NCBI GenBank assembly: GCA_024231215.1
Contig: JAAEQR010000142.1
Coordinates: forward strand, 292,593-356,592
DNA length: 64,000 bases
DNA from: PVC group bacterium
GTDB taxonomy: Bacteria > Omnitrophota > Gorgyraeia > B26-G9
Direction of reading: 5' to 3'
Position 1 is the stretch's first letter. Each line of letters opens with the position of its first letter. A program made the translations under genes and the position numbers. This document shows positions 4,284-53,956 of the stretch, piece by piece. The notes below the pieces were generated by a model. It saw nothing but the letters and a program-made list of their open reading frames with translations. It had not been told where the DNA came from and made no database searches.

Positions 4284-6428
4284 ATGGATACCCTGAAAGT
4301 TTTTAAGTCCCTGCCAGAAGAAATACAAGAAGTCCTGAAAGCAAGCGGCATTGATAATCTCTATCCGCCTCAGGCCGAAGCCGTAACCAACGGCTTACTT
4401 GAAGATAAAAACATAGTTCTCTCCATGCCTACAGCTGCAGGAAAAACTCTTCTGGCTGAACTAGTCATGCTAAAAACTCTTTTAGATAAAAAAGGTAACT
4501 GCCTATACATTGTTCCCTTAAGAGCTCTGGCTTCTGAAAAATTTGAGGATTTTAGAAAGAAATTTGCTTCTTTAGGAATAAAAGTAGGAATCGCTACCGG
4601 GGATTTTGATCGCGTAGATCCCTATCTAACCAAAAACGATATCCTGATCGCCACTGCAGAAAAAGTCGATTCTCTCTTGCGTCAAAAACCAGATTGGCTT
4701 TGTTCCCGCCTGGCTTGTGTGGTTATCGATGAAATCCATTATATCGGAGATCCTAAACGCGGACCAACCCTGGAAACCGTAATTACCAGGCTTCTAAATA
4801 TGAATCCTGATTTGAAACTTGTGGGGTTAAGTGCAACCATTGCCAATGCCAATGATATTTCCGGCTGGCTGAATGCTTCCCTGGTCTCCAGCATCTGGCG
4901 GCCGGTAAGCTTAAAAGAAGGTGTCTACTGCGAGGGAGAAATCACCTTTGCCGATGGCTCCAGAAAACAGATTGATTTCGAACATACCTCCGATGATGTC
5001 GCAGCTTTGGCTATTGATTGCATTAAAGATACAGGCCAAGTACTTGTCTTTGTTACTACCCGGAGATCAGCACAAGCTGAAGCACGCCGGATTTCCAAAG
5101 AAGTACAACATATCTTAACTACTAAAGAAAAAACAAAACTCAATGATCTGGCAAAAGAAATAGAAACATCAGCTGGAGAAACAACCAAAGTCAGTAAACA
5201 ACTCGGAGAATATCTGAAAAACGGTGTAGTCTTTCATCATGCGGGATTACATTACTCACACCGCAAAATTATCGAAGATTCATTCCGGCAAAATCTGATT
5301 AAGGTCATCTGTGCTACACCAACTTTAGCTGTAGGCGTAAATCTCCCTTCCCGACGTACAATAATTCGGGGACTTTACCGCTATGTATCAGGAGTAGGCA
5401 TGCGTCCGGTAAGGGTTATGGAATATAAACAAATGAGCGGAAGAGCCGGACGACCGGGATACGATAAATTCGGAGAGTCAGTCCTGTTTGCACGTAATAA
5501 ATCCGAACAACAGGACCTATTCAGTGATTTCATCTTTGCCGATTCTGAGCCGATACATTCACATTTGGGGAATGAAAGTGCTTTGCGCGTACACCTTTTA
5601 GCATCTATTGTCACCGGATTTATCACCAGTGAAGAAAGTGCTTTTGAATTTATAAAAAAAACATTCTTTTCTTATCAGGAAAAATACTATGATCTCTCTG
5701 ATATGATTCTAGAAATTCTTGAATTTCTAGAAAGCGAAGACATGATCCAGAAAAAAGCCAGCCAATTATTACCGACAGCTTTTGGCACCAGAATCAGTCG
5801 TTTATACATTGATCCGATAAGCGCGGTTATTTTAAGAGATTGCCTTAAAGATGCTCCTACGGCCCTACACCCGACAACGCTGCTCTATCTTATCTGTTCA
5901 ATTCCGGATATGTGTAAATTAGCTTTAAAAAAACAAGATATCGAAAAATTAGTGCCCTTTGCCGATAAACACGCAGACCTATTTGAACTCCCCCTGCCTC
6001 TGGATGACGATTACAGTTCTCAGCTGGCTAAAATCAAAACTGTCCTACTGCTCATGCAATGGATGGAAGAAGTCAAAGAAGATACCATCTGCACCTCATT
6101 TGGTATCGGGCCCGGCGATGTACATCGCTTTGTTGAAACAGCAGAATGGTTATTCTATGCAACCATAGAACTTTCAAAGCTATTTAAAACCCCAACCATT
6201 GAAAAATTGCATAATATACGCACCCAACTGCGCTACGGCATAAAATCAGAACTAATGGATCTGGTCAGATTAAAAGGAATTGGAAGAACACGTGCCCGCA
6301 ACTTATTCTCCGCAGGCTTTAAAAATATGCAAAAACTGCAAACAGCTCCTCTGCAAAAGCTACAGAAAGTACCAACTATCGGAAAAGAAATCGCCGCAAA
6401 CATCAAAAAACAGGCTGTTGCGCTTTAG
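4284..6428 (+). CDS. Hel308/Ski2-like superfamily-2 DExH helicase
   Basis: Motif I MPTAAGKT, motif II DEIH, motif VI QMSGRAGRPG, a long C-terminal winged-helix/ratchet region and a terminal helix-hairpin-helix (LVRLKGIGRTRARNLF). The 714-aa length matches archaeal Hel308. Confidence 0.8.
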   Translation: MDTLKVFKSLPEEIQEVLKASGIDNLYPPQAEAVTNGLLEDKNIVLSMPTAAGKTLLAELVMLKTLLDKKGNCLYIVPLRALASEKFEDFRKKFASLGIKVGIATGDFDRVDPYLTKNDILIATAEKVDSLLRQKPDWLCSRLACVVIDEIHYIGDPKRGPTLETVITRLLNMNPDLKLVGLSATIANANDISGWLNASLVSSIWRPVSLKEGVYCEGEITFADGSRKQIDFEHTSDDVAALAIDCIKDTGQVLVFVTTRRSAQAEARRISKEVQHILTTKEKTKLNDLAKEIETSAGETTKVSKQLGEYLKNGVVFHHAGLHYSHRKIIEDSFRQNLIKVICATPTLAVGVNLPSRRTIIRGLYRYVSGVGMRPVRVMEYKQMSGRAGRPGYDKFGESVLFARNKSEQQDLFSDFIFADSEPIHSHLGNESALRVHLLASIVTGFITSEESAFEFIKKTFFSYQEKYYDLSDMILEILEFLESEDMIQKKASQLLPTAFGTRISRLYIDPISAVILRDCLKDAPTALHPTTLLYLICSIPDMCKLALKKQDIEKLVPFADKHADLFELPLPLDDDYSSQLAKIKTVLLLMQWMEEVKEDTICTSFGIGPGDVHRFVETAEWLFYATIELSKLFKTPTIEKLHNIRTQLRYGIKSELMDLVRLKGIGRTRARNLFSAGFKNMQKLQTAPLQKLQKVPTIGKEIAANIKKQAVAL

Positions 6429-8669: not shown

Positions 8670-10111
8670 TACACCGTAATATCTTCTGATACAAGATTGA
8701 TGTTACCTACCCTTCCATTTCCCCGTTTAATACCATAAAGTCTCATTTTATTATACAATGTTGTCCGATTAATATCTAAATAAGCGGCTGCTTTAGTACA
8801 ATTCCAGTTAGAATATGTCAGGGCATTCAGAACAATATCTTTTTCCGGCATCCTTAACGCAGTTTTTAAAGAAAAGCCATGTATATCCGCCGAAAGAACC
8901 TCTGTTTTCTGAACAGCTTTACGTATGGAATCCGGCAGATCCCTTAAATTTAAAACACTGCCTTTAACCAAGATACAAGCGCGTTCAATCGTATTTTCCA
9001 ATTCCCGGATATTTCCCGGCCAGGAATATTCCATCATAGCCTGTAAAGCATCTTCATTAACTCTCTCAATTACCCGGCCGTTCTTTGTCTGTTTTCTACC
9101 CGTATTATATTTATCTAAGAAGTGATTAATAAGTAACGGTATATCTTCTGCGCGCTCGCGCAAAGGCGGAATTTCTATCTTTATAACATTCAGCCGCCAG
9201 TATAAGTCTTCACGAAAACTCTTTTTCTTAACCAAATCCTCTAGATTTTGATTAGTCGCCGCAATAATCCTCACATCCGCGGTACGTGTTTTCATGTCCC
9301 CCACGCGTTCATAATTACCCTCTTCTAATATCCGTAATAATTTTACCTGCAAACTAGGTGAACAGGTATCAATTTCATCTAAAAGAAAAGTCCCGCCATT
9401 AGCTAATTCAAATCTTCCGGCTCTATCCTTTATCGCTCCGGTAAAAGAGCCTTTGACATGTCCAAAAAGTTCGCTCTCAAGCAGAGTCTCAGGTAAAGCC
9501 CCACAACTAACTTCAATAAACGACTTCTCACAGCGATAATTATCAGCCTGACGAATTGCCTGGGCAATCATCCTCTTGCCTGTCCCGCTCTCTCCTGAAA
9601 TAAGTACTGTAGTCGGAGAATCGGAAATTGCCTCGATCATCGAATAGATCTTCTGCATACTTTCATTGCCGCCGATAATGTTATGGAATTTTTTTCTTCC
9701 TGCTGTAATCAGCGATTCCGCCTGTTCTGAACAGACTTCCGCGGTTTCCTGATGCTTAATAATTTTCTCTACCAAAGATTTAAGCTGATTATCTTCAATC
9801 GGCTTGGTCATGTAATCAAAAGCACCCATACGCATTGCTTTTACTGCTGTTTCAATATTGCCGTAAGCACTCATAAGCACTACATATGTTTGGGGATAAT
9901 TTTCTTTTATGGTTTTTAATAGCTCCTCACCTTCACAAGTAGAGCTGTCAATATCTGCAAAGATAATGTCTACGGAATACTTATCCATGAGTTGAAGTAT
10001 CTGCGCTCCATTTTCAGCCGTGGTAACATTATACCCCTTGTATCTTAAAATTTCTTGAAGAGATCTCCTCGTTAATGGTTCTTGATCAGCAACTAATATG
10101 TGTGTCCTCAT
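8669..10111 (-). CDS. sigma-54-dependent two-component response regulator (NtrC family; PrsR-like by context)
   Basis: REC domain (ILVADQEP...D), AAA+ sigma-54 activator domain (GESGTGK, GSFTGA variant of GAFTGA, ELFGH) and a C-terminal Fis-type HTH. Likely start is the ATG at 10109-10111, preceded by GGAGG; the longer ORF in the track begins with TTG. Confidence 0.9.
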   Translation of the reverse strand: MRTHILVADQEPLTRRSLQEILRYKGYNVTTAENGAQILQLMDKYSVDIIFADIDSSTCEGEELLKTIKENYPQTYVVLMSAYGNIETAVKAMRMGAFDYMTKPIEDNQLKSLVEKIIKHQETAEVCSEQAESLITAGRKKFHNIIGGNESMQKIYSMIEAISDSPTTVLISGESGTGKRMIAQAIRQADNYRCEKSFIEVSCGALPETLLESELFGHVKGSFTGAIKDRAGRFELANGGTFLLDEIDTCSPSLQVKLLRILEEGNYERVGDMKTRTADVRIIAATNQNLEDLVKKKSFREDLYWRLNVIKIEIPPLRERAEDIPLLINHFLDKYNTGRKQTKNGRVIERVNEDALQAMMEYSWPGNIRELENTIERACILVKGSVLNLRDLPDSIRKAVQKTEVLSADIHGFSLKTALRMPEKDIVLNALTYSNWNCTKAAAYLDINRTTLYNKMRLYGIKRGNGRVGNINLVSEDITV

Positions 10112-10113
10112 CT

Positions 10114-11250
10114 TTATCCTCCTATTGGTAGCCTTACCGTAAACCGAGCTCCTCCTTGAGACACACTTTCTCCTCTTACTTCTCCTTGATAACAATCAAT
10201 TATTTCTTTAACAATCGCTAAACCTAAACCTTGCCCTCTGGACTTTGTCGTAACGAAAGGCTCAAAGATCCTATCTTTAAACCGAGCATCAATCCCCTTG
10301 CCCGTATCCACAAAATCCACACAAAGATGGCCATTGTCCCGATAGCTTTTCACGTTTAGCTTACCTTTTTCATCTATAGCCTCAAATGCGTTTTTTACAA
10401 AATTAACAAAAATCTGCTGTAGACCACAATCCCTTATCAGCGGGAGGTCCCGAGTAAATTCCGTCTCGATATCTATTTGCTTACATATCGCCTGATGCTT
10501 ATAGAATGATATCGATTTGCTTAAAATATCATTTATATTTACCAGATCTCTTGATACTGGATTATGATTTCTATCTCCGGCAAAAGAAAACTCAAGCATA
10601 GAACGCAAAACATTTGCCATTCTCTTTAACCCTGCCTGAATTTCAGACAAATATTCCTTGATTATAGTTCCCTCTCCTGCCTGTTCCTTGCAAAGATTAA
10701 CGTAACGCATAATCCCATCTAACGGATTATTTAATTCTTGAGATATCCCGGCTGTAAACTTACAAACTGCCGTTGAATTCTTAAAACACTGCAGCTGCGC
10801 TTCCAGATGTTCTTTTGCAAATAAACTCTCTATTGTCTGTGCCGCAGAAGCAGCAATCGCACTAACAAAAGACAATTCCTTTATTGAAAACGGGGTTCCA
10901 TCATTCTTTTCTGTAACATTGAGAACCCCAAGCAAGCGATCTTCACGCATCAAAGGGACTGAAAGAAAAGAATGTGTTTGATAGTTTTCCTGACGACACT
11001 GAGTGCTAATCGACTCTTCCTGCCGCACATCTGCTACCAGCAATGGCTGTTTGCTTAAAGCCACCTGCCCGGAGATACCTTGTCCCAAACGCATACGCTC
11101 CCCAAGAATTGACTGTCTATTCTTACCACGCGCCACACGAACCACAATATCCTGCTTATTTTTATCCAAAAGCAGTATAGACCCGACTTCTGAATCTAAT
11201 ATATTCAGGCACTGATTAAGAATGGTCTCTAAAAATTTCTGCATATACAC
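10114..11250 (-). CDS. GAF-domain sensor histidine kinase (cytoplasmic)
   Basis: N-terminal GAF domain, HisKA region with the phospho-acceptor His (FTAGISQELNNPL), HATPase_c with N and G boxes (DTGKGI, GQGLGLAIV). Stop lies 2 nt from the response-regulator start. Confidence 0.85.
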   Translation of the reverse strand: MYMQKFLETILNQCLNILDSEVGSILLLDKNKQDIVVRVARGKNRQSILGERMRLGQGISGQVALSKQPLLVADVRQEESISTQCRQENYQTHSFLSVPLMREDRLLGVLNVTEKNDGTPFSIKELSFVSAIAASAAQTIESLFAKEHLEAQLQCFKNSTAVCKFTAGISQELNNPLDGIMRYVNLCKEQAGEGTIIKEYLSEIQAGLKRMANVLRSMLEFSFAGDRNHNPVSRDLVNINDILSKSISFYKHQAICKQIDIETEFTRDLPLIRDCGLQQIFVNFVKNAFEAIDEKGKLNVKSYRDNGHLCVDFVDTGKGIDARFKDRIFEPFVTTKSRGQGLGLAIVKEIIDCYQGEVRGESVSQGGARFTVRLPIGG

Positions 11251-11252
11251 CT

Positions 11253-12098
11253 TTAGTTTCCTAATTCGACAACTTTCTTCTTCAACATTTCCCCGGCCTT
11301 GTAATCCGGATATTCCTCTAAGATGCGTTTATATATCGACAAGGCCTTCTGCTTATCACTTAATTTATTTTCATATATATTTGCCAAGACCAAAAGCGTA
11401 TCCGAGCTCAGCGCATATTTAGAATCCAAACCTAAGATATAAGCCACTGCATTATCCCAGGCTTCCTGCTCCACATACGTACGCACAATCAGGTTTTCAG
11501 CCATTAAAGCACCCTTTGTATTAGGATACTTATCTGCTATAGCCTGATACTGATCTATCGCCGCCTGATATGCCTGTGCTGCTTCTGAGACTTTCTCATT
11601 TTCCAAATAATAATGGGCAATATACAGCGGCACGGAAAAACTCAATTGAGTCTTTTCGTATTTTGCTGAAATCTCCTTAAATAACTTTAGAGCCCAAGGC
11701 CAATTACCTTCCTTTTCATACGTCTGGCCTTTTTCGAATAAGGCGAGGGCATTTATTTCCTGCCGTCCTTGGTGGGATTCTATTATTATATCATATATAG
11801 CACGAGACTTGTCAAATTCTTTTTCCAGCGCATAGAGTTGGGCAATCTTAAACTGCGAATCCAAAGCATGGTTACTCTCGGGAGCCCGGGCGATTATCTT
11901 TTCATATAAAGCAATTACCGTCTTAAATTCATACGATGAAACAGAACCTTCATTAAGGAAAATCGGCTCTGCCGCTTTATTTGCCTGCCACACCATTCGT
12001 TCTATTTTGTACTGCTCACTGCATCCGGATAGGGTAACAACACTGCCCAGACATAAGATCATTACAATTATTAACTTAAAACTAGGCCTGTTCCTCAA
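11253..12098 (-). CDS. TPR-repeat lipoprotein (PrsT-like by context)
   Basis: Signal peptide with a lipobox (LSGC), followed by several TPR-like helical repeats. Confidence 0.55.
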   Translation of the reverse strand: MRNRPSFKLIIVMILCLGSVVTLSGCSEQYKIERMVWQANKAAEPIFLNEGSVSSYEFKTVIALYEKIIARAPESNHALDSQFKIAQLYALEKEFDKSRAIYDIIIESHQGRQEINALALFEKGQTYEKEGNWPWALKLFKEISAKYEKTQLSFSVPLYIAHYYLENEKVSEAAQAYQAAIDQYQAIADKYPNTKGALMAENLIVRTYVEQEAWDNAVAYILGLDSKYALSSDTLLVLANIYENKLSDKQKALSIYKRILEEYPDYKAGEMLKKKVVELGN

Positions 12099-17572: not shown

Positions 17573-20062
17573 TTACCGGCATAAAATCCGGCTTAAAGTA
17601 ATCAAAGGTTTCAAGCTAATTCTGATAATTTTACGTACTGCTGGTTTCTGTGCAATGCGATCGGCGATCGGAGGACTGTATGTATAATACAGTTTCACGA
17701 ATTTTCTGCCTAATGGATTAGTCAATAAGTAATCATCTCTAAACTCGCACAGAACTCGTACTTCTTTAGCCATCTTTGTTCCAAACGCTGCTGTAGCAAT
17801 AAAACATCCACCGCCGCCACCGCCGCCGCCAGAAGAACCACTTGCTGCTGCAGGAGGAGTGCTATCGCTATCGCCATCACTATCATCGCTATCTCCATCA
17901 TCTCCGGTATCAGTACTACCATCTGTTGAGTTAACGCCACCTATCGCATACATAGAAAAGTGAGTTGTAGGAACAGATACTTTTTTAGCCGCAACATCTA
18001 CAGTTGCACCGGGAACTTTTTCCCAAGCTGAAGTCGTAAGATTGTAATAATAGATGTTCAACGAAGACTCTTCCTCAATTCCGGCACTACTTAATTGAGC
18101 ACTAGTATAAGGAATAGTTATCGTTGCCGGAATATCAAACTCTGTTCCTCCCGGCCCGAAATCAACCACATTACCAACAATAAGAGTACTGCCTGTAGCT
18201 TCAGGAGCTGCTACTACTTGCGCTACCGTAATTGTAGTTGGCGCATCTATGGCTTGAGCACCTATGGCTACGCTTGTTCCAACAATGTTTCCTGTCTCAA
18301 CTAGTACGCTACCGCCAATCTCGTTATCTACTTTTTCCGCTTTAATTTCATCAGTAGTTAAAAACGTATTCCGGCAAAATTCAATTTCTTGTCTTCCTGA
18401 AGAGGTATCTGACCATGATACATAGTAATGACATCCTTGCGTATTTATCGCCAGAGAAGGATTATACTGCGTAGCCGTAGTATCAAACTGAGAGTATTCC
18501 TGGAATATATAATCCTGATAAGATGCTCCAGCTAATCCCACGCTGTAATTACCAGAACTATATTGCTGCCAAACAACTAAAGCATTTCCTTTAGTATCTA
18601 TGGCTAAATCATATGCCCCCAGAGAATCCGTACTTAAAATCGTTGCCGTACTATCCAGATTGTATAAGCTCTGTGCCTGGCTATACAGGTAACTAGCAAA
18701 CATCAAATCTCCAGCTTCTTTCCAAACCAGATATACATTATTTCCGTCAGAACTTACATCTAAAGCCGGCCCTTTATCTCCGGCTGTTGCAGCATTTGCT
18801 TCTACATCCGTCCCAAAACTTTCTCCGCAGTCAATTATATTCTTACTTGCACTATCAAAATAAATGCTATATGTACTATCATTGTTAACGCCATTCCAAG
18901 CTATAAATATCTTACTATTAGCATCCACCTCTATAGCCGGAGCAGCAGCTTTCTGCGGCCAGCGATCTTCATCTACTCGTAACGCTGTTCCTACAAATAC
19001 CTGCCATGCATCGGTATAATCTGCTGTTGTTCTAGTGTAATTTAAACTCGCATTACCACCATTCTCATCCACCCAACAAACATAAACAGTTGCCGGCTCT
19101 ACAGTCTGATCATCACCATCACCGGTAAGTGCCGCACCAACTGTCATTGCCGGAAATACCTGATTGCTTGTTCCTGCATCATTATATATCAGATGATTTA
19201 CTCCAAAAGCAGAACCAACAGCTTCTTTCCTAGATACATATATATCCCAGTCTCCTAAAACACTCATTTGCTGCCAAGCTACATAGATATTATTCTGGCT
19301 ATCTACTGCAATCGAAGGATACCGATCTTCTATTCCAACCGCAGAACTGTTAACTTTTATTGAAGATTGAAAACTAACTCCAAAATCAACTGACTGAGAA
19401 AAGTATATGTCCCATTCACCTTCAGTAGAACGTTCTTCCCATACCATATATACATTCTTACCATCATCAGAAGTAACTATGTGTGCTTTATCTTTCAAAG
19501 GTTCTACCGCAAATGATTCCATCATACCGCTTATAGAAACTTTTTTCTCTTTTCCGTAGATAAAATTTTGCGTTCTAAAATCGTATGTGTAAGCATTCAT
19601 CTGATTGCCCTCTAAATCTAATGCATCAACTTGAATCTCCACATTCTGCTTATAGATAAAATAATCGGCAGGATCATACATTATTACATACTCATTATTA
19701 GAGTTAACAATGATCTCTACATCATAATCTACGATCGATCCCTGCGAATCCGTATAACTCTGAACAACTCCATCTTCAATTATACTGACTCCCTCTACGG
19801 CAAGATCAATACTACTGCTATCAACCCCAATAATATCATCTTTTATACAAAGCTGAATGTTAGAATGAACCGGGATGTTGTTATTATTGTCTTGTGGAAA
19901 ACATCCATCAACATAAGGAGCATCATTATCAGCCCGCGTAGTGAAAGAATAAGTATCCGCTGTCATCTGATTAGCACAATAAGCATTAGCTGCGATCAAG
20001 AGCACCATCAAGCAGCTTATTGCCATTGTTATGATTTTTTTATTTTGTTTTGCATGTGTCAT
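17573..20062 (-). CDS. secreted surface protein 1: signal peptide, ANQMTAD N-terminal module, BNR/Asp-box-like beta-propeller repeats, Gly/Ser/Asp linker, conserved 'CFIATAAFG' C-terminal domain
   Basis: Signal peptide. Repeated Y[VL]VW.E...DIY.S.S.D.G.SF-type units. Acidic poly-G/S/D linker, then [12 protein letters not shown] and an ~80-aa tail shared with gene 25575-29087. Likely start is the ATG at 20060-20062, preceded by GAGGTGG. Confidence 0.7.
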
Positions 20063-20400
20063 CGTCCACCTCAAAAAAAGAGCCTGTTCTTGAAAGTTTT
20101 AGAACAGGCGTTTTCTTGAGTGCGGAACGGTTAGTACATAGTTTTATTTTCGACAGCTACGAGTTCCATACTATCCGCTATCACGCTACTTACTACTACT
20201 TATCACCTTCGGCAACCCAGCTGCCTTACTAGTCAATGGTCAATGGTCAATGGTCAATAGTTTAAACTTACTATCAGCCATTAGCTATCAACTATCAGCT
20301 AATGTAGGCCTGTGGCTTTGCTTCTCCGCCGCACTTGGCGGAGAAAGGCATTCACCTGTCCCATTCTTTCAAATGGTTTGCTATTATCGTGGTACACATT
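20063..20400 (-). promoter_or_regulatory. conserved 5' leader (copy A) with a GNRA hairpin, a covarying GC stem, heptad repeat arrays and a terminator-like hairpin + U-tract just 5' of the RBS
   Basis: Blocks shared with the leaders at 21382-21732 and 24999-25365: cacgataatagcaaaccatt[ct]gaaagaatggg, ggcctgtggctttgct, ttcggcaacccagctgcc. Hairpin gcctgttct/agaacaggc at 20082-20109 followed by U8. Confidence 0.6.
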
Positions 20401-21381: not shown

Positions 21382-21732
21382 AATCTTACCTCATCCTCCT
21401 TCTCCGAAAAAAAATCCTGTCCTCGAATTTATATAGAGAACAGGCGTTTTCATCGGTCAGCGCTCACCCGCCCAGTCTTCTGACGAATTTAACGTATCAG
21501 TCATCCTGTACGCTAAACGCTGTTTTTTTTACCTTCGGCAACCCAGCTGCCCTGTCCGCCATTGCGAACTTGGGGCCTGTGGCTTTGCTCCCCGCCTTAA
21601 TCTCAGCAGGAAGGGCCTCTTGACAGCCAATCCATCAAATTCATTTGTCATTTGTAACTCGACATTTGTAATTCAGGCTTTGCCTGTCGCCCGTCCCATT
21701 CTTTCGAATGGTTTGCTATTATCGTGTATAAC
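21382..21732 (-). promoter_or_regulatory. conserved 5' leader (copy C) with a terminator-like hairpin + U-tract 5' of the RBS
   Basis: Shared blocks at 21531-21551, 21574-21596 and 21688-21726. Hairpin cctgtcctc/gagaacagg at 21415-21445 with U8. Confidence 0.55.
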
Positions 21733-24998: not shown

Positions 24999-25365
24999 AT
25001 TTCCCCCTTAAAAAAAATACCTGTCTTCAGAAGTTAGAGAACAGGCGTAGTTCTAGTATATATAGAGTAATAGATATTATTCTCCTATACACTATTTTCC
25101 ATTCGGCAACCCAGCTGCCTTATCAGTCAATGGTCAATAGTCAATGGTTAATAGTTTTAATTCATATCAGCCATTAGCTACCAACTATCAGCTAATGTAG
25201 GCCTGTGGCTTTGCTCCTCCCGCCGTATTTTGGCGGGGAGAGGGCGTCCGCCCGTCCCATTTTTTCAACCCCGAATGAAGCAACCCTTCCAGGATACTCT
25301 TCGGGGTGCCGATGCGTTTCTCCCTAAGAGAACTACATTCGGCAATGGTTTGCTATTATCGTGGT
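24999..25365 (-). promoter_or_regulatory. conserved 5' leader (copy B) with an ~75-nt insertion inside the GNRA-hairpin stem and a terminator-like hairpin + U-tract 5' of the RBS
   Basis: Shared blocks at 25102-25120, 25127-25216 and 25243-25363. Covarying stem ctcccgcc/ggcgggag. Hairpin plus A8 (U8 on the minus strand) at 25010-25048. Confidence 0.6.
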
Positions 25366-49277: not shown

Positions 49278-49323
49278 AGCTAATAGCTCATGGCTGATAG
49301 CTTATGGTTAATGGCCTATAGTT
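49278..49323. repeat. heptanucleotide (AGCTNAT-type) tandem repeat array, 3' flank of the four-helix-bundle gene
   Basis: agctaat agctcat ggctgat agcttat ggttaat ggcctat, about 6.5 units. Confidence 0.7.
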
Positions 49324-49329
49324 AAAAAA

Positions 49330-49686
49330 CTATCGTTTTAAAGTATTTCTAAAAGCATGTAGCATTTTAGAAATGCCTTCACATCTGTTATACAAATTAT
49401 CAAATTCCATTTTGCTAATATATTTTTGCTCTAACGTTATATAGAGTAACGTTACCACCTCATTTAAAGAGCCTATTGCAATTTGAATAAACCTTGAAAA
49501 ATCATTATTTGAACGTCTGCCTTCTCCTTCAGCAATATTCAAGCTTATTGAAACTGCCGCCCGATTTAATTGACTAGTTAATCCAAACTGTTCAGCTTTA
49601 GGGAATTTTCTTGTCACCTCATAAATCTCTTTTGCAAATTTAACTGCCTCTTCCCATACTTTCAATTTTTCAAACTTAAATGCCAT
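49330..49686 (-). CDS. four-helix-bundle protein (TIGR02436 family; '23S rRNA intervening-sequence protein' family)
   Basis: 118-aa helical protein with the family hallmarks (KFE.L.VW..A......Y..T..FP..E...L.SQL.RAA.SI..NIAEG; FIQIAIGSL.E). Confidence 0.85.
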   Translation of the reverse strand: MAFKFEKLKVWEEAVKFAKEIYEVTRKFPKAEQFGLTSQLNRAAVSISLNIAEGEGRRSNNDFSRFIQIAIGSLNEVVTLLYITLEQKYISKMEFDNLYNRCEGISKMLHAFRNTLKR

Positions 49687-49707: not shown

Positions 49708-49737
49708 CCATCAGCTATTAACTATTAGCCATTAGCT
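49708..49737. repeat. heptanucleotide tandem repeat array, 5' flank of the four-helix-bundle gene; overlaps the last 3 codons of the ligase gene
   Basis: ccatcag ctattaa ctattag ccattag ct. Confidence 0.7.
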
Positions 49738-51212
49738 TTTTTCAACTCTTCCCGTTTAATCTTTCCACTTGCGGTCTTAGGCAGCTCAGGTAATATTTCA
49801 ATTTTCTTCGGGAATTTATAAAAAGCAAGATTCTGTTTGCAAAACACAGCGACTTCTCTTTCGGTAATATTCTCATCCTGCACAACCACACAAAGTTTAA
49901 TTACTTCCCCTAAAATATCATCTGGAATACCAACTGCAGCACATTCCATAATTCCCGACATCTGGCAAAGAATATCCTCTATTTCAAAAGGACTTATCCG
50001 GTTAGCCCCGCTTTTTATCATATCCTTCTTGCGACTAATAATATAGATAAATCCATCTTCATCAATACGCGCCAGATCTCCTGTAAATAATCCCTCCGTG
50101 CGTAATACTCCCGCGGTTTGCTCCGGATCATTCCAATATCCCTGCATTATATTCTCACCCCGGGCAACAATCTCTCCTTGCTCACCTACTGAAACCTTCT
50201 TTCCCTGATCATTTAAAACATCCAACTCTACCCCGGGAATAGCTTTGCCTACAGATCCCATTTTGTTTAACAACCGGTCCGGCTCTAAATAACTTAAACG
50301 CGCTGAAGCTTCTGTTTGTCCATACATAACACAAAAATTTATATCTGGAATAATATCTAAAAATTCCTTTATCATTGCCGGAGGCATTCCTCCTCCAGCC
50401 TGTGTAACATAACGTAATTTAGAAAGATCGTACTTACGAATCGCTGATTTTTTAATAAGAATAGCAAAATGAGAAGGAACTCCGGCAAACCCAGTAACTT
50501 CCTGCTTAGCCATAGTATCCAGTATTACATTTGGATACACAAAACGATTATCAAGAACCAATGTGCCCCCGACTTTGATATGAGTCGTTAATAAAGAGTT
50601 TCCGTAAGAATAATAAAACGGTAAGACAATCATTATCTTATCATCTGAGGTCAATTTTAAGTATTCGATAATAGAATCCGCATTAGCTGATAAATTACCA
50701 TGCGAAAGCATAACCCCTTTTGGCTTGCCCGTTGTTCCAGAAGTATAAATGATCATCGCCAGGTCGCTGTCGCTTAGCTGATAGCTAATAGCTAATGGCT
50801 TATGGTGATAATTAAAAGCTTCTTTTTCAATAAGCAAAATTTCGATTTGCTGTTCAGATAATTTCACAGCTTCAGCCGCTGTTTTATAATGCTTATTATC
50901 GGTAACTATTACATTCGGAGTACAATCATCTAAAGGCAGGCAAAGTTCTCTAGCTACTAATTGACTATTTAAGGCAACGACAACACCACCGCTCTTAAGT
51001 ATCCCAAAATAGGTAACCAGATATTCTATCCCGTTATCTAAAAAAATAGCAACCCGATCCCCTCTTTCCACTCCTTTAGCCAGAAGGCTCAAGGCAAATG
51101 TATCAGACCAGGCATCAAGCTGGGAAAAAGTATACTCTGATTTCTGATGAATTACCGCTGGTTTATCAGGAAACCTTTTTGCACTATTGCGTAAAAAATC
51201 GTGTATTAACAT
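49725..51212 (-). CDS. AMP-dependent acyl-CoA / acyl-ACP ligase (class I adenylate-forming; exosortase-system-associated type)
   Basis: YTSGTTGKPKGV AMP-binding motif, GEI/GE.L motifs. 495 aa. Confidence 0.85.
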   Translation of the reverse strand: MLIHDFLRNSAKRFPDKPAVIHQKSEYTFSQLDAWSDTFALSLLAKGVERGDRVAIFLDNGIEYLVTYFGILKSGGVVVALNSQLVARELCLPLDDCTPNVIVTDNKHYKTAAEAVKLSEQQIEILLIEKEAFNYHHKPLAISYQLSDSDLAMIIYTSGTTGKPKGVMLSHGNLSANADSIIEYLKLTSDDKIMIVLPFYYSYGNSLLTTHIKVGGTLVLDNRFVYPNVILDTMAKQEVTGFAGVPSHFAILIKKSAIRKYDLSKLRYVTQAGGGMPPAMIKEFLDIIPDINFCVMYGQTEASARLSYLEPDRLLNKMGSVGKAIPGVELDVLNDQGKKVSVGEQGEIVARGENIMQGYWNDPEQTAGVLRTEGLFTGDLARIDEDGFIYIISRKKDMIKSGANRISPFEIEDILCQMSGIMECAAVGIPDDILGEVIKLCVVVQDENITEREVAVFCKQNLAFYKFPKKIEILPELPKTASGKIKREELKKANG

Positions 51213-52001: not shown

Positions 52002-53006
52002 TCAATAATACAATTTCAGCAAATCATTGCGCAACCGATCAACCTGAAAATAATCATGCCGCTGTCCGGAAGAAACGCCCACGCCAGGAACCATTGATAA
52101 CATCATGACTCCCAGCAACCCCGGAGAAACACTATATTTGTTCAGACAATCCATTGCTCTTTTTCGAGCTTCAAATTTTTCTTTATTTTTCAGTAAATAC
52201 TTAGCCCAAAACACATAATTTATCTGTATCTGATCTCTAACATCGTTCTCATATTTTTTCTGCTTCGGGTCCAAAGAAGCCAATAAATGTTCGTATGATA
52301 CTATCCGATCGTGCATATTCTGGTTAAGATGATAATACACTTTATATAGATCAAAAAACCGGCTAACTAAAACTTTATTTATACAGCCAAGCTTAGACTG
52401 TTTTGCCATCTTAAATAAAAGATCCGCAAACTCAAATCCAGGTACATTCTCTACAAACGGGCCATAAAAAGAAAAATCTTTATTCCTGATCAGTAATGTT
52501 GAAAAAAACTTAAAACTACTGGCAATAAGATAATGCATTCTGTCTTTGATAACAAATAAACTACCGGGTGTTTCTTTCTGAAAAAACCGCCTCATTTTAA
52601 AGAAAGAAGTATTTACTATGCCATTTTTATCTATAATATCAAAATCACAACATACTCCAAAGTTATCCTCATTTTTTTCCAAAAACGCTACTTTTGCTTC
52701 TAAGGCATCCGGCGCCCAGATATCCCCAGCAGCAAGTACCGAAAAATACTTCCCCTCTGCCAACTTAAGAGTATTATTCAATACCTTACCTTTGGAAACA
52801 CCTTTCTGCTGAATAACAAGTTTTAGATTATTACGATAAGGAGTTATCGCCTTCTGCCACTTTTCCGTCATATTAGGAATGATAAGAAAAATTTCAGTAT
52901 TTTTATATATCTGAAACAATATACTCCGCAAGGTACACAAAAACTTTTCATCCTCCCCGCGAGCTATAATTACAATACTAACTTTTTGATTCTGATAAAG
53001 TTTCAT
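52002..53006 (-). CDS. glycosyltransferase family 2-like
   Basis: N-terminal VSIVII...NTEIFLI GT-A region, D.D-like and DxD-like motifs. Confidence 0.55.
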   Translation of the reverse strand: MKLYQNQKVSIVIIARGEDEKFLCTLRSILFQIYKNTEIFLIIPNMTEKWQKAITPYRNNLKLVIQQKGVSKGKVLNNTLKLAEGKYFSVLAAGDIWAPDALEAKVAFLEKNEDNFGVCCDFDIIDKNGIVNTSFFKMRRFFQKETPGSLFVIKDRMHYLIASSFKFFSTLLIRNKDFSFYGPFVENVPGFEFADLLFKMAKQSKLGCINKVLVSRFFDLYKVYYHLNQNMHDRIVSYEHLLASLDPKQKKYENDVRDQIQINYVFWAKYLLKNKEKFEARKRAMDCLNKYSVSPGLLGVMMLSMVPGVGVSSGQRHDYFQVDRLRNDLLKLYY

Positions 53007-53956
53007 GAATTCCTCTTAAACCAATCAAATGTGATTTTCAAGCCTTCGGAAAAACTCACATCCGGAGTATAATTCAACAAAGAATTTGCCTTTGCAATAT
53101 CCGAATGGCTTTTAAAAATATCTCCGACACGTATTGGCAAAAGCTCCGGTTTGACAGATTTTCCAGCGATCTGATTTACAATATCAACAATACTTAAAAC
53201 CGTATTACTTTCTCCACAAGCAATATTAAATACTTCTTTAGATACCCCTGGAACTGTCGCTGCCAGGATGTTAGCTTTTACAATATTTTTCACAAAAGTA
53301 AAATCGCGTGATTGTTCCCCGTTGCCGAATATCGGCGGCTGTTCATCATTTAAAATACAGGTGATAAACTTAGGGATAACCACTGCATATTCGTCATCTA
53401 ATGCCTGCCTCGGGCCAAATACATTAAAATAACGCAAGCAAACTGTTTCTACTCCGAAATTCTCACTGAAAATACGACAATAATATTCACCCGCTAATTT
53501 CGTTAACGCATACGGAGAGATTAATAAAGGATAATGTGTTTCAGTTTGAGGAAACTGATCAGTATCACCATACACAGAGCTAGATGAAGCAAACACAAGT
53601 CTTTTTACACCACACTCCTGAGCCGCTTTTAACATATTAAGCGTACCGTTAATATTAACTTCATTATATTCATATGGGTCGGTCATAGATTTCGGAACAC
53701 TTCGTAAAGCTGCCTGATGCAAAACATAGTCAACCCCAGTACAAGCCTTAACACAAGCTTCATAATCACAGATATCGCCGCGAATCAGCTGATAGCTTAT
53801 AGCTGATGGCTCATAGTCAGAAATAAAAGATAAGTTTGATTCTTTTCCACTAAAGAAATTATCTAGAATAACTACTGATTCGCCTTGTTTTAACAAGTCT
53901 TCTACTATATGAGAACCAATAAACCCGGCTCCTCCGGTTACAAGATACTTTGCCAT
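53003..53956 (-). CDS. NAD-dependent nucleotide-sugar epimerase/dehydratase (UDP-sugar 4-epimerase-like, short-chain dehydrogenase family)
   Basis: TGGAGFIGSH Rossmann motif and the catalytic YALTK (YxxxK). Confidence 0.85.
   Translation of the reverse strand: MAKYLVTGGAGFIGSHIVEDLLKQGESVVILDNFFSGKESNLSFISDYEPSAISYQLIRGDICDYEACVKACTGVDYVLHQAALRSVPKSMTDPYEYNEVNINGTLNMLKAAQECGVKRLVFASSSSVYGDTDQFPQTETHYPLLISPYALTKLAGEYYCRIFSENFGVETVCLRYFNVFGPRQALDDEYAVVIPKFITCILNDEQPPIFGNGEQSRDFTFVKNIVKANILAATVPGVSKEVFNIACGESNTVLSIVDIVNQIAGKSVKPELLPIRVGDIFKSHSDIAKANSLLNYTPDVSFSEGLKITFDWFKRNS

Follow-up and report, generated by a model that had tools for sequence, protein, structure and literature searches.

Heptanucleotide arrays as candidate arm modules of intervening-sequence-like elements in an Omnitrophota genome

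A stretch of 64,000 nucleotides (nt) from a PVC group bacterium (GenBank assembly GCA_024231215.1, contig JAAEQR010000142.1, positions 292,593 to 356,592 of the forward strand; hereafter the window) carries tandem heptanucleotide arrays at six sites, which lie in two gene leaders, on either side of a gene for a four-helix-bundle protein and within two enzyme genes. The explanation favoured here, with moderate confidence, is that the arrays are 28-nt, four-heptad arm modules of selfish elements resembling the intervening sequences (IVSs) of 23S rRNA, which occur with and without an open reading frame (ORF) for the protein S23p, and that the stems formed by the arms are probable substrates of RNase III. 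A preliminary description of the same DNA had located the six sites; it missed that the two leaders are cyclic di-GMP (c-di-GMP-I) riboswitches with a hairpin in the apex of helix 2, and that the arrays are arms of S23p cassettes. The finding is a variant of the known heptamer repeats and of the IVS, and is richer than that description had proposed. Coordinates are collected in Table 1.

The window contains one full-length cassette, located between the gene for an AMP ligase and the next gene of a polysaccharide-synthesis operon. Its product belongs to PF05635, the family of 23S rRNA-intervening-sequence proteins, with an E value of 2e-41 and 140.9 bits against a cut-off of 33.8; the nearest solved structure is PDB 2GSC, the Xanthomonas protein XCC0516 (E=5e-21). 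The two arrays that had been seen to flank this gene are inverted arms, and their duplex reaches -34.5 kcal/mol as compared with -17.9 +/- 3.9 for shuffled sequences. The 5' arm provides the final codons and the stop of the ligase, and beyond the 3' arm come the ribosome-binding site and the start of the gene that follows.

Array hairpins devoid of an ORF are found in two of four matches (A to D) to the c-di-GMP-I riboswitch model of Rfam (RF01051), for which the gathering score is 35 bits; A and C reach this score, B does not. In A and B the model is broken by 66 and 65 nt, respectively, precisely in the terminal loop of helix 2. Each insert consists of a 28-nt arm of one array type (Y), a loop of about 10 nt and a 28-nt arm of the complementary type (X), and folds as a hairpin with one mismatch per heptad, so that array hairpins of 65-66 nt replace the apex of the second aptamer helix. 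Base pairing between the two arrays of each leader, one of the roles suggested earlier, is therefore borne out at the level of complementarity and predicted fold. Alignment with A and B identifies aptamer C as a paralogous empty site inside the window.

A related Omnitrophota contig, L223, harbours orthologues of the three genes in conserved order (983, 242 and 837 aa), with a c-di-GMP-I riboswitch upstream of every one; these syntenic riboswitches score 54.8, 45.4 and 40.8 bits. The one with the highest score (10321-10407) is the orthologue of A and has no insertion, the second (5689-5815) is the orthologue of B and has its apex intact, and the short intact apex of these two orthologues reads CCCCCGAAACAGGGGG. 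The third riboswitch accommodates at 9110-9137 a four-heptad array, TTCAAAG TTAAAAG TTGAAAG TTCAAAG, which constitutes the apical loop of helix 2. This is the same apex as that occupied by the window hairpins, in another paralogue and with another sequence, and the orthologue of this riboswitch in the window, C, is without an array. As the L223 orthologues of A and B are uninterrupted and a different array sits in the third riboswitch, colonisation of the helix-2 apex has occurred more than once, and there are empty sites.

The three riboswitch leaders of the window display further structural features (20322-20357, 25235-25345 and 21607-21689 on the minus strand). They share a canonical first hairpin, ACGAUAAUAGCAAACCAUUYGAAAGAAUGGGAC, and all three contain an extra structured insert of 36-100 nt between this hairpin and the GCAAAGCC junction; a similar insert of 41 nt is present in L223 5689-5815. 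In leader B the first helix additionally bears an inserted hairpin of some 80 nt at its apex. The Rfam matches C and D may be the halves of a single aptamer that a 100-nt insert splits. Within this insert, at 21641-21673 on the minus strand, weakly periodic heptads resembling (CAAATGA), with 65% matches, may represent a degraded array.

Cassettes of the same build recur in orthologous loci obtained via relatives of the window epimerase (L121-L125, L128 and L206-L209), where S23p genes lie between biosynthetic genes at a density of up to four per 18 kb. The relatives yielded 25 S23p matches, approximately 23 of them scorable; about 17 have complementary flanks (z about -3.5 to -8), and in about 14 of these 17 the flanks are heptad-periodic. 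The arms come in several sequence flavours, including AGCYATN, CGCTAAN, TTAYGAA, GTCACAA and others, and S23p proteins that are at least 60% identical have a common arm flavour and occupy different intergenic junctions. Thus the window-type cassette occurs between the ligase gene and a gene for a 331-aa protein and also between the genes for UDP-glucose dehydrogenase and the epimerase, with L121 holding both in one genome, and the CGCTAAN-type cassette is found between the epimerase and family 2 glycosyltransferase (GT2) genes, between GlmS and UDP-glucose dehydrogenase, and upstream of the epimerase. The epimerase-adjacent cassettes of L121, L123, L206 and L209 are absent from the window, where the corresponding junctions are tight or overlapping. 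Two S23p copies are decaying, one through an in-frame stop at codon 11 and the other through a frameshift (L123 9583-9939; L124 15313-15662); both keep their heptad arms, and their state parallels the reductive evolution reported for the S23p ORF of Coxiella. No target-site duplication is evident at the riboswitch or cassette junctions. In approximately 850 kb of other metagenome epimerase loci, which include many Omnitrophota with 60-76% protein identity, only two arrays of the window family were found (L133 and L150, each beside an S23p gene), as against 7-11 arrays per 15-64 kb in the window clade; judged from these sequences, the family is lineage-specific. The L121 locus also holds, among its polysaccharide genes (10429-11888), an AbiEii-family toxin gene with an upstream partner and a PDDEXK_3 gene, interspersed with S23p cassettes; polysaccharide clusters orthologous to that of the window gather selfish or defence genes.

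The periodicity of the arrays is far beyond chance. All six sites are period-7 arrays and were recovered by Tandem Repeats Finder, which called one array as period 14. A separate period scan (at least 16 of 21 self-matches; periods 4-12 compared) detected eight period-7 runs in the window, every one at a previously recorded site, against 0-2 runs for each of the other periods and about 0.2 runs in each first-order Markov shuffle; the strict pattern (YYATNRR) with at least three units gave seven arrays in the window and none in 30 shuffles. The arrays form one family, whose X type on the sense (minus) strand is (YYATNRR)n, for example CCATTAG, CTATCAG or CCATTGA, and whose Y type is the complement, YYNATRR, for example TAGCTGA or GCTAATG, with stop codons in all three frames. 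Of the motifs given in the preliminary description, (AGCTNAT) and (ATNAGCT) are the same family on opposite strands, and (TCAATGG)n complements it imperfectly (5/7). Array length peaks at exactly four heptads, or 28 nt, in 31 of 54 strict runs. Inverted pairs follow the order Y then X in ten cases and the reverse in none, with spacers of 10-96 nt where no ORF is present and of 377-419 nt where S23p is enclosed. Besides the heptad arms, no other long inverted repeats of this kind were found in the window. Short repeats of other periods occur inside the 833-aa ORF (17808-17902): (GCTATC)4, two copies of CCACCGCCG, and units of 12 and 15 nt; the hexamer GCTATC is similar to the heptad core.

The proximity of period-7 arrays to S23p genes was also surveyed in other sequences. 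In 869 kb of metagenome loci the arrays numbered 0, 2, 38, 5 and 7 for periods 5, 6, 7, 8 and 9, respectively; 14 of the 38 period-7 arrays are no more than 150 nt from an S23p ORF, in a zone making up 1.3% of the sequence, which amounts to a 28-fold enrichment (locus-level Fisher test, p=2e-4). Three control stretches of 50 kb contain 6, 3 and 9 period-7 arrays versus 0-1 for periods 5, 6, 8 and 9, and in two of the three (L221 and L222) most of them adjoin an S23p gene. Cyanobacterial, Gemmatirosa and Azospirillum replicons supplied ten S23p genes, of which 8-9 lie no more than 80 nt from period-7 arrays; several display perfect inverted sets, such as (GTAGGGA)n and (TCCCTAC)n at -81 kcal/mol, and one of the ten is a true 23S rRNA IVS. 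On the Azospirillum lipoferum plasmid AZO_p2 (L218, 14001-15130) 23S rRNA sequence (GCGTAATAGCTCACTGGTC...) lies immediately upstream of an S23p ORF, the arrangement of a classical rRNA IVS, and a period-7 stretch, CCGTCCT CTGTCTT CTGTCAT CCGTCTT, follows the ORF. Cyanobacterial plasmids (L213, L215/L222, L212/L220 and L214) have S23p genes inside operons, most with heptamer arrays on their flanks, at positions that include cas10-cmr3, cas6-cas4, the boundary between the beta and alpha subunit genes of ribonucleotide reductase, and the vicinity of an integrase gene. In Pseudanabaena, eight of the nine period-7 arrays of a 50-kb stretch are within 2.5 kb of an S23p gene, at cas gene boundaries.

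Two solo X-type arrays reside within coding sequences of the window, where, as described earlier, both are in frame and specify P-[LS]-A-I-S-Y-Q-L: KPLAISYQL in the ligase and EPSAISYQL in the WbpP-like epimerase. The epimerase array is kept in the DNA of eight orthologues whose genes are 67-79% identical. At four of its five amino-acid-invariant positions the codon is invariant too (TAT, CCA, TCA and TAT), versus 10 of 176 such positions elsewhere in the gene (one-sided Fisher test, p=1.1e-4). In the ligase, the orthologues of the window, L121 and L124 carry the array at the same place in a gap-free alignment, and 12 of 12 heptads keep YYATNRR even though the peptide varies (HKPLAISYQ, HRPSTIDHG and HQPLAINHE); in L121 three units are homogenised to CGA. 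More distant epimerase orthologues have other heptad flavours at the same spot (CGCTATN in L130, ACGCTAC in L149, and L131). To judge from these comparisons, the arrays in coding sequences are under nucleotide-level constraint, with frozen synonymous sites. Because synonymous sites are frozen and heptads outlast amino acids, the AISYQL peptide is best regarded as incidental to a nucleic-acid element that either is maintained or undergoes constant renewal at a surface segment able to tolerate it. An ancestral origin of the peptide had been put forward as evidence against derivation from repeats; it is indeed ancestral within a clade of at least eight sampled genomes, yet it is dictated by an element that acts at the nucleotide level.

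These comparisons bear directly on the earlier proposal that the arrays are footprints of recombination or insertion and that the coding copies are recent in-frame insertions that added AISYQL, an account we now consider very improbable. The occurrence of the same 24-nt string in two unrelated enzymes, the lineage-specific flavours at the epimerase site, which point to turnover at that spot, and the coming and going of cassettes at neighbouring junctions would all suit it. Against this, alignment with orthologues and PDB homologues shows no indel at the array in either enzyme: PDB homologues and 29 orthologues are of equal or greater length there, the epimerase differs by no more than two residues from the shortest orthologue group and is shorter than WbpP, and orthologues with and without the array do not differ in length at either site. 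The 30 aligned proteins and about 45 DNA loci included no close orthologue that lacks exactly the array-encoded residues. Moreover, the array is ancestral to the clade and is common to the eight epimerase orthologues, and its 28 nt, not being a multiple of three, cannot insert in frame. Repeat-driven in-frame insertion as a force shaping these proteins is not supported in the form proposed.

Polymerase slippage offers a second alternative, under which the arrays would be ordinary long simple-sequence repeats, neutral or mildly tolerated, that accumulate wherever the sequence is permissive, as in intergenic spacers, at hairpin tips and in surface loops, their proximity to S23p being fortuitous. 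Among long simple-sequence repeats, heptamers are the over-represented class in numerous genomes (Mrazek 2007, as cited in PMC4679880 and PMC4692102), period 7 is prominent in every data set examined here, and the sequence flavours are many; the homogenised CGA units of the L121 ligase suggest concerted evolution, and copy number varies among Coxiella strains (PMC4990558). Copy numbers nevertheless show a sharp peak at four and no geometric distribution, and a slippage origin sits poorly with the fixed polarity of inverted pairs (10 versus 0), the complementary flanks of S23p ORFs, the 28-fold enrichment beside them and the synonymous sites frozen across eight orthologues. In addition, whole-heptad additions could not reach an in-frame 28-nt array without a frameshift, unless units were added in threes. 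We judge this alternative improbable.

Several observations weigh against the favoured explanation of the arrays as arms of IVS-like elements. The stability of the riboswitch hairpins is modest: on the transcribed strand hairpin A, taken in isolation, reaches -18.5 kcal/mol, with z of -1.6 against shuffles (-2.6 for B), and the arms of both hairpins are only about 5/7 complementary. Better pairing of the transcribed strand through G-U wobble is unsupported, the non-transcribed strand of hairpin A giving -25.9 kcal/mol versus the -18.5 of the transcribed one. As sense and antisense duplex energies show no consistent difference in either direction, pairing at the RNA rather than the DNA level is undemonstrated. 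The array at L223 9110-9137 has no complementary partner, which leaves the loop unpaired; the solo arrays in coding sequences are likewise without a partner, and pairing with the arm of an adjacent cassette was rejected since the flavours do not co-vary (L206, L209 and L121). In the sequences analysed, no transposase linked to arrays or cassettes and no other mobility mechanism was found. Finally, a scan for AGCYATN x 3.4 with one genome per species returned at least 120 loci, in Cyanobacteria, Acidobacteriota, Gemmatimonadota, Chloroflexota, Bacteroidota, Planctomycetota and Desulfobacterota among others, with about two estimated by chance; among the loci listed, an S23p gene lies within 8 kb in only one of 120, and few of the listed arrays from other phyla are in inverted pairs. 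On these two counts AGCYATN arrays were rejected as general markers of S23p.

Unpaired arrays speak for the main rival, slippage and simple in-frame insertion fitting poorly. According to this rival, a trans-acting factor would bind the arrays by recognising some four heptads of single-stranded RNA or DNA, with S23p as the obvious candidate in the form of a TRAP-like homopentamer and with arm pairing as a secondary matter; binding would control the translation or stability of neighbouring genes, or would mobilise the arrays as RAYT transposases serve REPINs. The sharp mode of four heptads, also apparent in a published Xanthomonas table, would reflect a ligand of fixed size, and both the unpaired array in the L223 riboswitch loop and the constrained solo arrays in coding sequences are readily accommodated. 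S23p is described as a homopentameric toroid (Lin 2006, as cited in PMC4990558); the Coxiella protein has been suggested not to be made in vivo (PMC4990558). Arm flavour tracks the S23p subfamily, a match equally expected from co-inheritance within the cassette, and the flavour in coding sequences differs from that of the neighbouring cassette. A post-transcriptional regulator has been proposed for TAACTGA repeats just upstream of start codons (MacGregor 2015, PMC4679880); arrays, however, far outnumber S23p genes, and 119 of the 120 listed array loci of other phyla have none nearby. On balance, we regard a trans-acting factor as unlikely.

If the arrays are arms of IVS-like elements, as favoured here, full-length members would comprise a 5' arm, an S23p gene of about 120 codons and a 3' arm, inserted between operon genes, and members without an ORF would be arm-loop-arm hairpins, two of which would stand in for the helix-2 apical loop of window aptamers much as the tips of 23S rRNA helices give way to classical IVSs. 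Once transcribed, the two arms would form an imperfect duplex of about 28 bp, which RNase III most likely cleaves if rRNA IVSs are a guide. Cleavage would release or destabilise the S23p message, or split the polycistronic RNA, or amount to a tolerated extension or nick in the riboswitch helix. Single sense-oriented arms would persist in the ligase and epimerase at surface-loop positions, held by nucleotide-level constraint. The sequences themselves show the anatomy, the complementarity of the arms in most cassettes, the S23p cargo, empty orthologous sites, the presence of one cassette type at different intergenic sites and the conservation of synonymous positions; processing by RNase III, like any host benefit or cost, any influence on the regulation of genes behind the riboswitches and the way in which the elements spread, is a matter that we infer.

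The genomic setting is that of an Omnitrophota bacterium. A cyanobacterial origin, which the heptamers might call to mind, is ruled out: the HIP1 motif (GCGATCGC) has no occurrence, the proteins, the epimerase included, are 100% identical to those of a metagenome-assembled genome of a PVC group bacterium, the nearest relatives are Candidatus Omnitrophota, and so are all close relatives of the window epimerase, in agreement with the non-cyanobacterial background recognised at the outset. The right part of the window is a minus-strand polysaccharide-synthesis operon with genes for UDP-glucose dehydrogenase, the WbpP-like epimerase, a GT2 glycosyltransferase and the AMP ligase, among others, and the region at 17-29 kb holds genes for large beta-helix/fn3 surface proteins. 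A search of the window for tRNAs and further Rfam families found none.

Table 1. Features of the window (positions counted from its first letter; TRF, Tandem Repeats Finder)
Feature	Position	Strand	Details
c-di-GMP-I aptamer A	20208-20392	-	RF01051, 37.7 bits; leader of 833-aa ORF (17573-20074); hosts the flagged arrays
c-di-GMP-I aptamer B	25102-25234	-	RF01051, 32.8 bits, under gathering score; leader of 1081-aa beta-helix/fn3 ORF; paralogous arrays
c-di-GMP-I aptamer C	21534-21606	-	RF01051, 38.2 bits; helix-2 apex without heptad hairpin
RF01051 match D	21619-21727	-	26.7 bits, weak
Hairpin A, 5' arm	20271-20298	-	UAGCUGA UAGUUGA UAGCUAA UGGCUGA; four Y-type heptads
Hairpin A, loop	20261-20270	-	10 nt
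Hairpin A, 3' arm	20233-20260	-	CUAUUGA CCAUUGA CCAUUGA CCAUUGA; four X-type heptads
Hairpin B, arms	25127-25154 and ~25165-25197	-	65-nt heptad hairpin, paralogous to that of A
S23p (four-helix-bundle) gene	49330-49686	-	118 aa; PF05635; cassette cargo
Cassette 5' arm, Y type	49708-49735	-	GCUAAUG GCUAAUA GUUAAUA GCUGAUG
Cassette 3' arm, X type	49280-49321	-	six heptads; inverted repeats I9 and I20
Solo X-type array, ligase	50778-50805	-	four heptads; in acyl-CoA/AMP ligase coding sequence (49725-51212), codons ~136-145
Solo X-type array, epimerase	53789-53816	-	four heptads; in WbpP-like epimerase coding sequence (53003-53956), codons 47-57
TRF period-7 array	20232-20258		3.9 copies, 100% matches
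TRF period-7 array	20271-20301		
TRF period-7 array	25126-25152		
TRF array, called as period 14	49279-49312		
TRF period-7 array	49708-49736		
TRF period-7 array	50775-50805		
TRF period-7 array	53787-53816		

In Cyanobacteria, Mazel et al. in 1990 reportedly described STRR repeats, tandem heptamers in intergenic DNA with the units CCCCAGT, TTGGTCA and CAACAGT. Small dispersed repeats, with defined units of 21-27 nt, are said by Elhai et al. in 2008 to lodge in the hairpin tips of structured RNAs without destroying them. The window arrays resemble the former in being intergenic tandem heptamers and the latter in being small elements at hairpin tips; they differ from both in sequence and phylum, and small dispersed repeats are not heptad arrays. 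The likeness to STRR sequences drawn in the preliminary description holds as a likeness, with a different unit. The units TAGCTGA/AGCYATN and CCATTGA differ from those of the described families STRR1-3, TAACTGA and GGGAATC.

The closest parallels in anatomy are provided by IVSs. In Coxiella burnetii the IVS is a selfish element in helix 45 of 23S rRNA with a 28-bp terminal stem, excised by RNase III, and 3-4 tandem GACAGAT heptamers, in numbers that differ among strains, precede the S23p ORF (Warrier et al. 2016, PMC4990558). The elements of the window and its relatives share with the 23S rRNA IVSs of Coxiella, and of the Leptospira, Brucella and Xanthomonas S23p genes, the PF05635 cargo, terminal inverted repeats able to form a stem some 28 bp long, tandem heptamers shortly before the ORF, replacement of the tip of a structured RNA helix, shorter forms devoid of an ORF, decaying ORFs and the behaviour of selfish elements; the riboswitch hairpins lack an ORF as short classical IVSs do. 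They differ in lying outside rRNA helices 9, 25 and 45, namely in a riboswitch aptamer, in spacers of a polysaccharide operon and, as single arms, in coding sequences, and in having both arms made wholly of heptads. As their hosts are a c-di-GMP-I aptamer helix and intergenic spacers, the window elements are IVS-like and not rRNA IVSs.

Three other systems offer partial parallels. Rehm et al. (2015, PMC4692102) catalogued GGGAATC and GGGGA(C/T)T arrays in Xanthomonas and Nostoc, mostly of 28 nt and four units, often in inverted pairs with a separation of 21-67 nt, located between operon genes; row 15 of their table, a 28-nt, four-unit GGGAATC array, abuts the start of XCC0516, the S23p of PDB 2GSC (PMC4692102 supplement). 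Like the window arrays, these are 28-nt modules in inverted pairs, situated a few nt from the end of a gene, between operon genes of like orientation and, in some cases, within a gene. They are G-rich and read as G-quadruplex formers, unlike the AT-rich YYATNRR arrays, for which no G-quadruplex is possible; the authors discuss quadruplexes and make no link to S23p or IVSs. The TAACTGA direct repeats of Beggiatoaceae, Cyanobacteria and Bacteroidetes (PMC4679880) are one base away from the TAGCTGA of the window. In forward orientation they have stops in all frames and lie upstream of starts or over the stop of the upstream gene; in reverse orientation they are tolerated in ORFs, and Table 3 of that paper predicts SAISYQL for TAGCTGA. 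In contrast to the window arrays, TAGCTGA is never repeated in the Maribeggiatoa genome, copy number declines from 2 to 6 with no peak at 4, a single indirect (inverted) repeat is recorded, and S23p is not linked (PMC4679880). The REPIN-RAYT system (Bertels and Rainey 2011, PMC3116915) similarly combines many short hairpin-forming inverted repeats between genes with few copies of a small-protein gene flanked by repeats; S23p, however, is not a transposase, no catalytic activity is known for it, and its elements have heptad arrays for arms in place of a fixed palindrome. A limited literature search found no paper linking heptamer arrays in general to S23p, or reporting an IVS-type insert in a riboswitch.

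A wider and distinctly tentative proposal is that the arrays of four 7-nt units in many phyla (STRR, TAACTGA, GGGAATC/GGGGAYT, and AGCYATN in at least 120 genomes from a dozen phyla) might be cis-elements of one system with the S23p toroid as protein partner. S23p genes with heptad arms would then be master copies and the dispersed arrays and hairpins non-autonomous derivatives, as in RAYT-REPIN, and any tolerant RNA helix, whether of rRNA or of a riboswitch, or any tolerant protein loop could be colonised. Should this prove true, it would explain the long-noted excess of heptamer repeats as well as the function of a large orphan protein family.

S23p cassettes outside rRNA are built like the Coxiella IVS, with 28-nt heptad arms around an ORF, from Omnitrophota to cyanobacteria, Xanthomonas and Coxiella, and this shared build connects two orphan problems, namely why heptamer repeats are in excess in bacteria and what role PF05635 has. 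In two enzymes of the window a nucleic-acid element inside the coding sequence dictates a protein loop. An IVS-type element in a riboswitch apex, together with empty orthologous sites, offers a natural test of the amount of foreign structure that a c-di-GMP-I aptamer can bear, and if RNase III cuts the hairpin stem, the outcome would be a fragmented riboswitch.

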